From: a virus
Lineage: Duplodnaviria > Heunggongvirae > Uroviricota > Caudoviricetes
DNA: 7,410 nucleotides
Reading direction: 5' to 3' (one strand)
IMG/VR virus record: IMGVR_UViG_2600254985_000002
Coordinates: 1 to 7,410 of that record
Made by a program: the position numbers and the translations under genes. This document shows, piece by piece, positions 4,876 through 7,073 of the stretch. Numbering within the stretch: position 1 is the first letter of the stretch; each line of letters opens with the position of its first letter. The notes under the pieces were generated by a model. It did not search any database and was not told the origin of the DNA. It saw only the letters and a list, made by a program, of their open reading frames with translations.

Positions 4876-4904
4876 TTGACAGCTTAGAGCTTTTTTGATA
4901 TAAT
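4876..4904 (+). promoter_or_regulatory. sigma-A type promoter: TTGACA (4876..4881), 17 bp, TGaTATAAT (4896..4904)
   Basis: Perfect consensus hexamers with TG extension, then a TATAG element and AAAGGAGG RBS before ATG 4937. Confidence 0.65.
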
Positions 4905-4936: not shown

Positions 4937-5251
4937 ATGATTTTAATACAATGCGTAACCTGTGGGTCTTCAAGTTTCACTAATGGTAAATGTGATTATT
5001 GCGGTAACAAGTACGAAGTAAATGAAGACAAAATATTTTACGGCAATTCGAAAGAAGATGATTCATCATTAGATGAGGATATAACCTTTCAAGAAACTCC
5101 TGCTGGTAAATTAATACTAAAAATCATGATCTATACTTTAATATCTATTGTTTGGTTTGCGATAACTGTATTCATTCCACCGCTATTTATAATAACAATT
5201 ATTTTATTAGTAGTCTATGGGACTTATCGCTTGATAAATAAAAAGAAATAG
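4937..5251 (+). CDS. zinc-ribbon membrane protein (N-terminal CxxC…CxxC, two predicted TM helices)
   Basis: Translation has C-V-T-C … C-D-Y-C near the N-terminus, an acidic linker, two hydrophobic stretches (LILKIMIYTLISIVWFAITVF; PPLFIITIILLVVYGTY), then basic RLINKKK. Own consensus promoter and strong RBS. Confidence 0.7.
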   Translation: MILIQCVTCGSSSFTNGKCDYCGNKYEVNEDKIFYGNSKEDDSSLDEDITFQETPAGKLILKIMIYTLISIVWFAITVFIPPLFIITIILLVVYGTYRLINKKK

Positions 5252-5288: not shown

Positions 5289-5537
5289 ATGAAACAAAAA
5301 TACTTTAATGACAAAAGATATTGCCACTGCTTCGATATACCAATGAGTAATGGTTTAGGAGTTTGCAAAGATTGTAGAGGATACGTGAACATCTGTTATA
5401 GTTGCGATCGCTGTCTACACTGCTGGTTTACATCACAGGTTGAACTATTTACCGAATATGATGAACCTAAGTTGCTGGAACTTATAGAAAACTGGAATAA
5501 ATTTTACCAAACTAGAAAGACAATAAATAATGCTTAG
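5289..5537 (+). CDS. Cys-rich putative zinc-binding small protein (82 aa)
   Basis: Cys/His pattern C-H-C … CKDC … CYSC-x2-C-x-H-C within about 35 residues. Stop overlaps the methyltransferase start (ATGCTTAG). Confidence 0.6.
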   Translation: MKQKYFNDKRYCHCFDIPMSNGLGVCKDCRGYVNICYSCDRCLHCWFTSQVELFTEYDEPKLLELIENWNKFYQTRKTINNA

Positions 5538-6417
5538 TTTAGACGAGAAGAAAATCAGAAAAGGTAAACCTATTGGATTACCATACCAAGGAAGCAAGAA
5601 AAAGATAAGCAAGAAAATAGTTGAGATTATCAAACAGAACTTTGGCACAGACAAGCCGATATACGACATCTTCGGAGGAGGCGGAGCAATTACATCCGAA
5701 TGTATTTTAAATGGCTTAGAAGTATATTATAACGACTTAGACAAGGATATAACCAACGCTTTTGAACGAGTTATCTCTCAAGACCGTGAGTGGATTAAAA
5801 GCCTTATTGTTTCACGTACAGAGTTTACCGAGATTAAGGAGAAAGAAAACAAGACAACAGATGACTTTTTGAAGTTGCTGATTAACTCTTTCGGTAATAA
5901 AAAGAGAGATTATTTATATTCTAAAGAAATTTCAGATTTAAAATATAATCTAGCTAAAGAAATAATTGAAAAGCATGACGTTTTTAGTGGTTATAAACAG
6001 ACCAAAACATATAAGAGATCGATTGAAAAGTACAAACAACTTCAACAACTTCAACGACTTCAACAACTTGAACGACTTGAACAACTTCAACGAATTCAAC
6101 AACTTCAAAAATTAAATAAAATAAAAGCTACAAGCAAAAGTTATCATGCTTTTAGTGATGTTTCTGGAGCTATTCTATATCTTGACCCCCCTTATGAAGG
6201 AAGTCACCAAAAAGGTTATATTAATCAATTCGATAGTCAAGAGTTTTATGACTGGGCATTTGTAATGGCTAAAAATAACATCGTGATAATTTCAAGTTAT
6301 TCAATTTCAGATGAACGCTTTGAAGCTGTATATTCTTTTGACAAAGCGCGCAGCACTCTCCAAAGTGGAAGAAGCAAAAAAGAAAATGAGAAATTATTTA
6401 TGGTTAAAAACAGTTAA
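5530..6417 (+). CDS. N6-adenine DNA methyltransferase, D12/Dam-like (alpha-class motif order)
   Basis: N-terminal G-S-K-K-K-I region, FGGGGA AdoMet-binding motif (5671..5688), NDLDKDI block, and catalytic DPPY (6184..6195) in the order motif I … DPPY. Well-established family hallmarks. Confidence 0.85.
   Translation: MLSLDEKKIRKGKPIGLPYQGSKKKISKKIVEIIKQNFGTDKPIYDIFGGGGAITSECILNGLEVYYNDLDKDITNAFERVISQDREWIKSLIVSRTEFTEIKEKENKTTDDFLKLLINSFGNKKRDYLYSKEISDLKYNLAKEIIEKHDVFSGYKQTKTYKRSIEKYKQLQQLQRLQQLERLEQLQRIQQLQKLNKIKATSKSYHAFSDVSGAILYLDPPYEGSHQKGYINQFDSQEFYDWAFVMAKNNIVIISSYSISDERFEAVYSFDKARSTLQSGRSKKENEKLFMVKNS
6034..6114 (+). repeat. imperfect 9-bp tandem repeat (consensus CAACAACTT, about 9 units) inside the methyltransferase ORF
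   Basis: Units in order: aaacaactt, caacaactt, caacgactt, caacaactt, gaacgactt, gaacaactt, caacgaatt, caacaactt, caaaaatta. In frame, encoding KQL-QQL-QRL-QQL-ERL-EQL-QRI-QQL-QKL. Confidence 0.85.
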
Positions 6418-6420
6418 TAT

Positions 6421-6449
6421 TTGATAAAGTAAAAGCAATTTGATAGAAT
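6421..6449 (+). promoter_or_regulatory. sigma-A type promoter: TTGATA (6421..6426), 17 bp, TGaTAGAAT (6441..6449)
   Basis: Near-consensus hexamers with TG extension, followed by AGAGGAG RBS and ATG 6475. Confidence 0.55.
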
Positions 6450-6474
6450 AGAGTTATAAATAGAGGAGAACAAA

Positions 6475-6594
6475 ATGAAAGATACAGTAAAAACTTTAAT
6501 GATGGTTGCAGGTGTCGGCCTTACACTTATCGCTATCACTTGGATAGGTATGCTTGCGACGTTGCTTATTGCATGGATTGGGGGTAACATCTAA
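6475..6594 (+). CDS. small hydrophobic peptide (39 aa, single predicted TM helix), not in the supplied ORF track
   Basis: ATG 6475 with AGGAG RBS 7 nt upstream and its own promoter. Translation MKDTVKTLMMVAGVGLTLIAITWIGMLATLLIAWIGGNI. Stop TAA (6592..6594) overlaps the next ATG (TAATG). Confidence 0.5.
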   Translation: MKDTVKTLMMVAGVGLTLIAITWIGMLATLLIAWIGGNI

Positions 6595-6902
6595 TGAATT
6601 ATGGTACAAATAAGCACTATGCCAATGAATACGGTATGGAACTTAACGAATACTTTAAACATCATTTTAACTATGAAGAGCTTGCAGGCTGGTATACAAT
6701 GCAGGTATTAAAGTATCTAGTGAGAGCTGGCAAGAAAGAGGGTGAAAGCTACGACAAAGACCGTAACAAGGCTTTAGACTATGCAGGAGAACTTGCTAAC
6801 TTAAGTAACGAGAATAAGCTTACAGAATACACTGCTGACGACATTATGAGCTTTGCACAAGATATAGCTGATGATTTCAAACAATGGAAAGGCGAAGAAT
6901 AA
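6594..6902 (+). CDS. hypothetical phage protein, possibly DUF3310-like
   Basis: 102 aa, translationally coupled to the small peptide gene. Pattern NKHY … VLKYLVRAGKK … DKDRNKALDYAGEL resembles what I recall of DUF3310 phage proteins; family name is from memory. Confidence 0.55.
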   Translation: MNYGTNKHYANEYGMELNEYFKHHFNYEELAGWYTMQVLKYLVRAGKKEGESYDKDRNKALDYAGELANLSNENKLTEYTADDIMSFAQDIADDFKQWKGEE

Positions 6903-6921: not shown

Positions 6922-6950
6922 TTGACAGTGTGAACTTTTTTTGATATTAT
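6922..6950 (+). promoter_or_regulatory. sigma-A type promoter: TTGACA (6922..6927), 17 bp, TGaTATTAT (6942..6950)
   Basis: Consensus -35, TG-extended -10, then TATAGAAATTAAGGAG. The ATG at 6978 opens only a 7-codon ORF (MENTMLN*). Confidence 0.5.
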
Positions 6951-7044: not shown

Positions 7045-7073
7045 TTGACAAATATAAAGTAATTTGATAATAT
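7045..7073 (+). promoter_or_regulatory. sigma-A type promoter: TTGACA (7045..7050), 17 bp, TGaTAATAT (7065..7073)
   Basis: Near-identical to 320..348 over the 29 bp from -35 to -10. Followed by TATAGAAAGGGG RBS and ATG 7099. Confidence 0.6.

Follow-up and report, generated by a model that had tools for sequence, protein, structure and literature searches.

The DNA analysed here, called the window throughout, is a stretch of 7410 bases that is the early gene block of a 936-group Lactococcus phage (genus Skunavirus). It was matched by 381 phage records, the best match being phage BM22, with 98.7% identity across 100% of the window. The annotated genes include those for Sak, SSB, a D12-class DNA methylase and SaV. 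All of the annotated genes of the early block lie on the plus strand, and overlaps of 1-8 nt are the rule between neighboring genes. Between the DNA methylase gene and sav lies a small open reading frame (ORF), 6475-6594, which is the subject of this study. This position agrees with the original prediction, which had placed the ORF in an early region and outside a lysis cassette. The lysin of phage sk1 is ORF20, past a bidirectional terminator. The features at the locus are as follows.

6421-6449, plus strand: early promoter-like element, with a -35 TTGATA (6421-6426), a 17-nt spacer, TG (6441-6442) and a -10 TAGAAT (6444-6449)
6464-6468, plus strand: Shine-Dalgarno sequence AGGAG of the small ORF, 6 nt 5′ of its ATG
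6475-6594, plus strand: 39-codon gene for a putative single-pass membrane micropeptide, with an ATG start, matches to DUF7186 and phrog_1508, and a helix prediction
6580-6584, plus strand: GGGGG within the Gly36-Gly37 codons, Shine-Dalgarno sequence of sav, 9 nt 5′ of the sav ATG
6592-6596, plus strand: TAATG stop/start overlap of the small ORF and sav, the last A of the TAA (6592-6594) being also the first letter of the ATG at 6594
6594-6902, plus strand: sav, the second cistron, 102 aa, DUF3310 (PF11753, E = 6.4e-9; annotated as SaV in BM22)
6625 to 6598, minus strand: promoter-like site TTGGCA-16-CATAAT, scoring 10/12, inside the first sav codons

Mutation of sav makes the phage insensitive to AbiV (PMC4759559; bioRxiv 10.1101/2024.05.05.592566; PMC13064643).

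Some other features of the window were also recorded. The D12-class DNA methylase gene (5530-6417) contains a tandem repeat at 6035-6108, in which the 9-nt unit AACAACTTC is present in 8.2 copies and encodes a low-complexity insert, QQLQRLQQLERLEQLQRIQQLQKL. Another early membrane protein is encoded at 4937-5251 (104 aa, phrog_1919, the equivalent of sk1 ORF31). Its N-terminal part carries a zinc-ribbon-like motif, CxxC...CxxC, its C-terminal half is hydrophobic, and BM22 labels it 'putative membrane protein'.

The small ORF and its predicted product

The ORF was found where it had been predicted, with 39 codons and a hydrophobic product, MKDTVKTLMMVAGVGLTLIAITWIGMLATLLIAWIGGNI (39 aa). The ribosome-binding site claimed for it, AGGAG, was also present at 6464-6468 with a spacing of 6 nt. 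The hydrophobic core extends from L8 to G37; its best 19-residue Kyte-Doolittle mean was 2.26 and its Hessa sum was -2.07 kcal/mol. AlphaFold2, run with a 32-sequence alignment, modelled one helix over residues 2-38, with a mean pLDDT of 95.7. The peptide starts with a short basic stretch (K2, K6) and ends in GGNI or GGII; past K6 it carries no charge, and there is no hydrophilic tail. A single-pass membrane peptide is thus predicted from the length of the helix and from its hydrophobicity, the latter being conserved among the homologues, and the single transmembrane helix of the original prediction was recovered by both the Kyte-Doolittle and the AlphaFold2 predictions. Its 'Gly/Ala-rich faces' were not, as the positions of Gly, Ala, Ser and Thr around the helix showed no significant clustering to one side (resultant 0.16-0.39, P = 0.2-0.7). 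As a hydrophobic stretch of 30 residues exceeds the need of a bilayer, a tilted or interfacial arrangement is possible. Digestion with trypsin would give one hydrophobic fragment of 33 residues, so the peptide is unlikely to be seen by shotgun proteomics.

Only two lengths of the peptide were found among relatives, 39 aa and 42 aa, and they differ by an in-frame 9 nt (three additional codons). The 42-aa variant (loci L021, L022, L067, L071, L086 and L090) begins with MKLDLETAKTL..., which is more acidic (net charge of about -1 versus +1), and carries AWLAMLAILS as a core variant. This acidic N-terminus would be of interest if the positive-inside rule matters for the topology.

Judged by its sequence matches, the small ORF is an already catalogued gene of a known family, and its membrane prediction is already public. 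The peptide scored 74.2 bits with Pfam DUF7186 (PF23815), for which the curated gathering cut-off is 27, its residues 1-39 falling on model positions 1-39, and it matched phrog_1508 along 1-39 of 39 residues (E = 2.2e-24). The gene is ORF27 of phages p2 (ACI94898.1) and sk1 (AAB70067.1), in both of which it is a 120-nt CDS just 5′ of ORF26/sav; this annotation dates from 1997. Identity to the peptide was 79.5% for p2 ORF27 and 100% for the 'putative membrane protein' genes of the OP4519xx phages (tblastn). In BM22 the small ORF is BM22_31, labelled 'putative membrane protein', and it is labelled likewise in the relatives of BM22. The word 'unlisted' therefore held for the first-stage ORF track only, because GenBank records of near-identical phages annotate the gene. 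Given ORF27 of sk1 and p2, the BM22 annotation, DUF7186 and phrog_1508, we regard the small ORF as ordinary and already known, and as a find of a genome scan it adds little. What is added here is the selection for a hydrophobic helix, the sav ribosome-binding site inside the ORF, and the RefSeq records that omit the ORF or let sav overrun it.

The family is narrowly distributed. A tblastn search of 50,697 phage records found the peptide in 374, of which 373 were skunaviruses. The sole exception was an unrelated 133-kb phage, AM4, whose match was at chance level (E = 0.04). Of the roughly 381 skunaviruses that have been sequenced, about 374 have the peptide. An hmmsearch of 1.84 billion representative proteins returned 12 clusters, all of one narrow family, and searches of PDB sequences and of NCBIfam with the peptide gave no match. 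One of the protein searches used a 40-residue translation, begun one codon upstream of the ATG. Our literature search found no paper on DUF7186, and the papers on p2 ORF47 proteomics, on 936-group comparative genomics and on phage escape, as well as the Abi review, do not mention ORF27.

The annotation of the small ORF is inconsistent among the RefSeq records NC_049409 (63302), NC_049415 (96603), NC_049414 (96403), NC_049411 (79201) and NC_049407 (62601) and at our loci L003, L084 and L086. Several RefSeq skunavirus records contain an intact small ORF that is not annotated. In 79201 and 62601, sav has been given an upstream start (MAWRN...) and overruns the small ORF in another frame.

Conservation and selection of the reading frame

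We compared two sets of related loci. The first consisted of 87 loci gathered through sav or GenBank matches. For the second, the first 20 nt of the small ORF were used as the query, which gave 120 further loci, 107 of them usable; as it was found through the ORF's own sequence, this set is independent of sav. The frame was intact and closed by a TAA stop in every locus of both sets (87/87 and 107/107). AGGAG or AGGAGG lay within 16 nt 5′ of the start in 79 of the 87 sav-linked loci, and a weaker GAGG or AGGA was present in seven more.

Conventional substitution rates were of little help. Nei-Gojobori pairwise dN/dS was 0.53-0.57 for the small ORF versus 0.25 for sav, and two other frames gave values similar to that of the small ORF, so this ratio is weak evidence for a short hydrophobic ORF. 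As dN/dS did not discriminate, a column-permutation test on physico-chemical character, which is better adapted to a transmembrane peptide, was used instead and proved decisive. Among the 102 aligned columns, 58 were variable, and pairwise identity fell as low as 71%. In the 72 distinct sequences, the residues D, E, K, R, H, Q, N and P were all absent from the 30-residue core. In the permutation null, the variable columns were shifted to random columns of the same consensus base. The permuted sets contained a mean of 82.6 polar, charged or Pro residues, and none of the 5000 permutations reached zero, which indicates selection for hydrophobic character in the sense frame. A larger collection of 171 distinct peptides showed the same core pattern as the 72 nucleotide variants; L8, I32 and W34 were invariant, and W23, L30 and G36 departed from the consensus in one peptide each.

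ORF 6475-6594 is a conserved protein-coding gene selected for hydrophobicity. The intact frame in both sets of loci and the permutation test (0/5000) therefore bear out the claim of a genuine coding ORF. The ORF withstood the conservation check that had accompanied this claim, as the frame was kept in all relatives; the comparison of synonymous and non-synonymous changes was weak.

The possibility of a non-coding RNA was also considered. Rfam gave no match for either strand, and the predicted fold of the region was no better than those of shuffled sequences (z = +0.64). This candidate was rejected.

Transcription and the junction with sav

The near-consensus promoter of the original prediction corresponds to the promoter-like element at 6421-6449, which scores 10/12, includes the TG and has its -10 end 25 nt 5′ of the ATG. 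The early promoters at 320, 1955, 4876 and 6922 of the window are stronger (11-12/12). The same element with the same spacing is found directly 5′ of the small ORF in about 39 of the 87 loci. In 44 others, a different gene ends at most 15 nt 5′ of the small ORF and there is no adjacent promoter; the upstream neighbor codes for a DUF1140 protein or a methyltransferase, or is of the ORF28 type and joined by an ATGA overlap. The element in the window also aligns with the promoter 5′ of ORF29 in sk1 and p2. Because of this homology and of the 44 loci with an intervening gene, the putative promoter is that of the operon, and the idea that the small ORF has a promoter of its own was abandoned. Ribosome profiling of sk1 identified ORF21-ORF50 as one early-expressed cluster (PMC10986495).

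A series of early promoters was recorded along the window, at 320-348, 1955-1983, 4876-4904, 6922-6950 and 7045-7073, all on the plus strand. They are near-consensus extended -10 promoters of the TTGACA-17-TGnTATAAT type (10-12/12). This series splits the early block into short operons, in agreement with the E3, E4 and E6 promoters annotated in sk1.

At the 3′ end of the small ORF, the codons for Gly36-Gly37 contain GGAGG in 69 of the 87 loci and GGGGG in another 15, 9-10 nt 5′ of the sav ATG. The record of phage bIBB29 has a ribosome-binding site annotated at this position. The C-terminal Gly-Gly is thus both a part of the peptide and the place where sav has its ribosome-binding site, and this layout would suit translational coupling. 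Most of the junctions (69 of the 87 loci) are TAATG, and the other 18 are TAAATG. The overlap claimed in the original prediction is therefore present, but it is nothing special, as overlaps of 1-8 nt are common among the genes of the window. Its conservation in relatives likewise stood only in part, because in some of them the small ORF is coupled to another gene or is uncoupled.

Among the 107 independent loci, every one has a DUF3310 gene 3′ of the small ORF, and in 103 of them the two genes abut. Phage 712, which is known to lack sav (PMC4759559), lacks the peptide gene as well and retains the next downstream gene. As both are missing there, the pair appears to be dispensable and to have been lost together.

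In CHPC958 (L090) and in loci L095, L099 and L149, the sav allele is only 34-36% identical to the usual sav and is more like its counterpart in the L. garvieae phage PLgY-30 (L089). It begins 33-275 nt 3′ of an intact small ORF, and in one case it lies behind another coupled ORF. This looks like replacement of the allele by recombination at the small-ORF/sav position.

Interpretation and comparison with known systems

We consider it very probable that a single hydrophobic helix is encoded here by a conserved gene, which has its own ribosome-binding site, carries that of sav, and has a stop codon that overlaps or abuts the sav start. Early transcription would start from the putative promoter at 6421-6449 and give a small-ORF/sav message whose first cistron is the small ORF, and ribosomes that end on the small ORF would reinitiate on sav. 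The peptide would be inserted in the host cytoplasmic membrane, probably with its N-terminus inside and its C-terminus outside, as the positive-inside rule suggests from K2 and K6 at the N-terminus and the uncharged C-terminus. It would act as an accessory small membrane protein, most likely through packing of its helix against a host membrane protein or against itself, and not as a lethal pore. Judging from phage 712, which has neither the peptide gene nor sav, it is probably dispensable for plaque formation.

A more specific role, as a membrane partner of SaV, is the main alternative but rather unlikely. The peptide and SaV would then form a two-part early module, and SaV would be tethered, tempered or localised at the membrane by the peptide. 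The order of the two genes speaks for such a module: a SaV-type DUF3310 gene follows the small ORF in all of the 107 sav-independent loci (abutting in 103), and the order is kept even with the replacement allele of 34-36% identity. The joint loss in phage 712 points the same way. Haaber et al. (2009) reportedly found that SaV is toxic when overproduced and forms dimers, and this was counted toward the same reading. However, gene order in a recombining phage module is by itself no proof of interaction, and in some skunaviruses the small ORF and sav lie 33 nt apart or have another gene between them. SaV-like DUF3310 proteins also occur in Ceduovirus and Uwajimavirus, at 30-37% identity, but the small ORFs that precede them in Ceduovirus bIL67 and Uwajimavirus PLgY-30 are unrelated to the peptide gene and encode non-hydrophobic, non-membrane products.

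The original prediction had likened the product to a type I toxin or a holin. A membrane-damaging peptide, either a toxin controlled by an antisense RNA or a permeabiliser of the holin/antiholin kind, would agree with the small size and the single predicted transmembrane helix. A transcript from the minus-strand promoter-like site at 6625 to 6598 would run across the small ORF in antisense, and sites scoring 10/12 or more occur at the homologous place in 56 of the 87 loci. This recurrence is confounded, however, as the site sits in conserved AT-rich sav codons, and no minus-strand terminator was found near it. Nor was there an antitoxin RNA from Rfam on either strand. The peptide itself is also of the wrong build. 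Its C-terminus, GGNI or GGII, is not the charged or polar tail that follows the helix in type I toxins of the Fst/Ldr and Hok types, and the two or three uncharged residues past the helix do not make the hydrophilic, highly charged C-terminal domain of a holin. There is no polar face, Thr being the sole polar residue of the core. At E <= 0.1, DUF7186 was the only Pfam match, with no toxin or holin family among the results, and the only PHROG match was phrog_1508, which is of unknown function. In addition, the ORF belongs to the early block, far from the lysin and not in a lysis cassette, and depolarisation of the host within minutes of infection would presumably harm phage replication. We therefore gave up the toxin-like or holin-like assignment, and membrane damage as the function of the peptide is highly doubtful.

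The -10 element of the minus-strand site varies among relatives, the forms found being CATAAT, TAAAAT, TGTAAT and TATAAT.

The pairing with SaV and the antisense-controlled toxin are kept under consideration because the gene order is the same in 107/107 loci, phage 712 has lost both genes and the minus-strand site recurs. Accordingly, we give a small chance to the joint proposal that the peptide is either a tether or moderator of SaV that shapes what AbiV senses, or a toxin-like product under an antisense transcript from the site in the sav codons.

It is very improbable that the ORF is a pure translational leader, of which only the translation matters, to deliver ribosomes to sav or to open its ribosome-binding site. 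Such a leader would explain the sav Shine-Dalgarno sequence within the ORF and the stop that overlaps the sav ATG, and the lower synonymous divergence of the small ORF than of sav (pS 0.19 vs 0.29) hints at some constraint at the nucleotide level. It would not explain why hydrophobicity of the peptide is strongly selected (0/5000), why Trp and Gly positions are invariant or nearly so, or why the ORF stays intact where sav is 33-500 nt away or another gene comes next. The unremarkable RNA structure (z = +0.64) also argues against it.

That there is no gene here at all, the frame being a chance one, a non-coding 5′ leader or the shadow of a real antisense ORF of 58 codons (6414-6590, minus strand), is barely conceivable: the antisense frame is open in 68/68 distinct sequences, with a dN/dS (0.585) near that of the sense frame, but this openness follows from a sense frame without Tyr, His and Gln codons, whereas the start, Shine-Dalgarno sequence, 39-codon length and TAA stop of the sense ORF are conserved, a curated Pfam family exists for its product, and the genes of the block are all on the plus strand. 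The antisense ORF was rejected as a by-product of sense codon usage, because its length (42-65 codons) and its start are unstable and its ATG is missing in seven loci. Selection for hydrophobicity, and the persistence of the small ORF where it is not coupled to sav, also contradict the absence of a gene.

Skunaviruses are the chief cause of phage-related failures of cheese fermentation, and to our knowledge a function is known for only a minority of their early proteins. Insight into the function of the peptide could help to explain how the host is taken over early on, or the circumstances under which AbiV is triggered.

Among known systems, the type I toxins Fst, Hok, TisB and Ldr and the phage holins resemble the predicted peptide in being small, hydrophobic and membrane-bound. 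Unlike them, it has no charged tail, no polar face, no antitoxin RNA family and no lysin neighbor. Another likeness is seen with AcrZ, MgrB, MgtR and SgrT, bacterial small single-pass regulators that bind larger membrane proteins. They share with the peptide a length of 30-50 aa, a single transmembrane helix and nearly no soluble domain, and the helix-helix packing suggested above is a model borrowed from regulators of this type. The likeness is one of kind only, as there is no sequence kinship and the peptide is phage-encoded and early.

The nearest counterpart is ORF27 of sk1 and p2, which has the same family, the same length of 39 aa and the same position directly 5′ of sav/ORF26. The surroundings differ. 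In sk1 and p2, ORF29 (DUF1140) and ORF28 stand between the shared early promoter and ORF27, whose start overlaps the ORF28 stop, whereas the window has neither gene there and its ORF is directly preceded by the promoter-like element. Another counterpart is sk1 ORF30_a, a previously unannotated, predicted membrane peptide of 36 residues for which ribosome profiling showed translation (PMC10986495). Like the peptide in the window, it is a tiny single-helix membrane peptide of the Skunavirus early region; it differs in its unrelated sequence and in its locus 5′ of ORF30, and no homologue of it was found in the window. Together with the 104-aa protein at 4937-5251, ORF30_a (PMC10986495) shows that skunavirus early regions code for several small membrane proteins. 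For the small ORF described here, the example of ORF30_a is of interest because it shows that such micropeptide ORFs of Skunavirus are translated early (PMC10986495).
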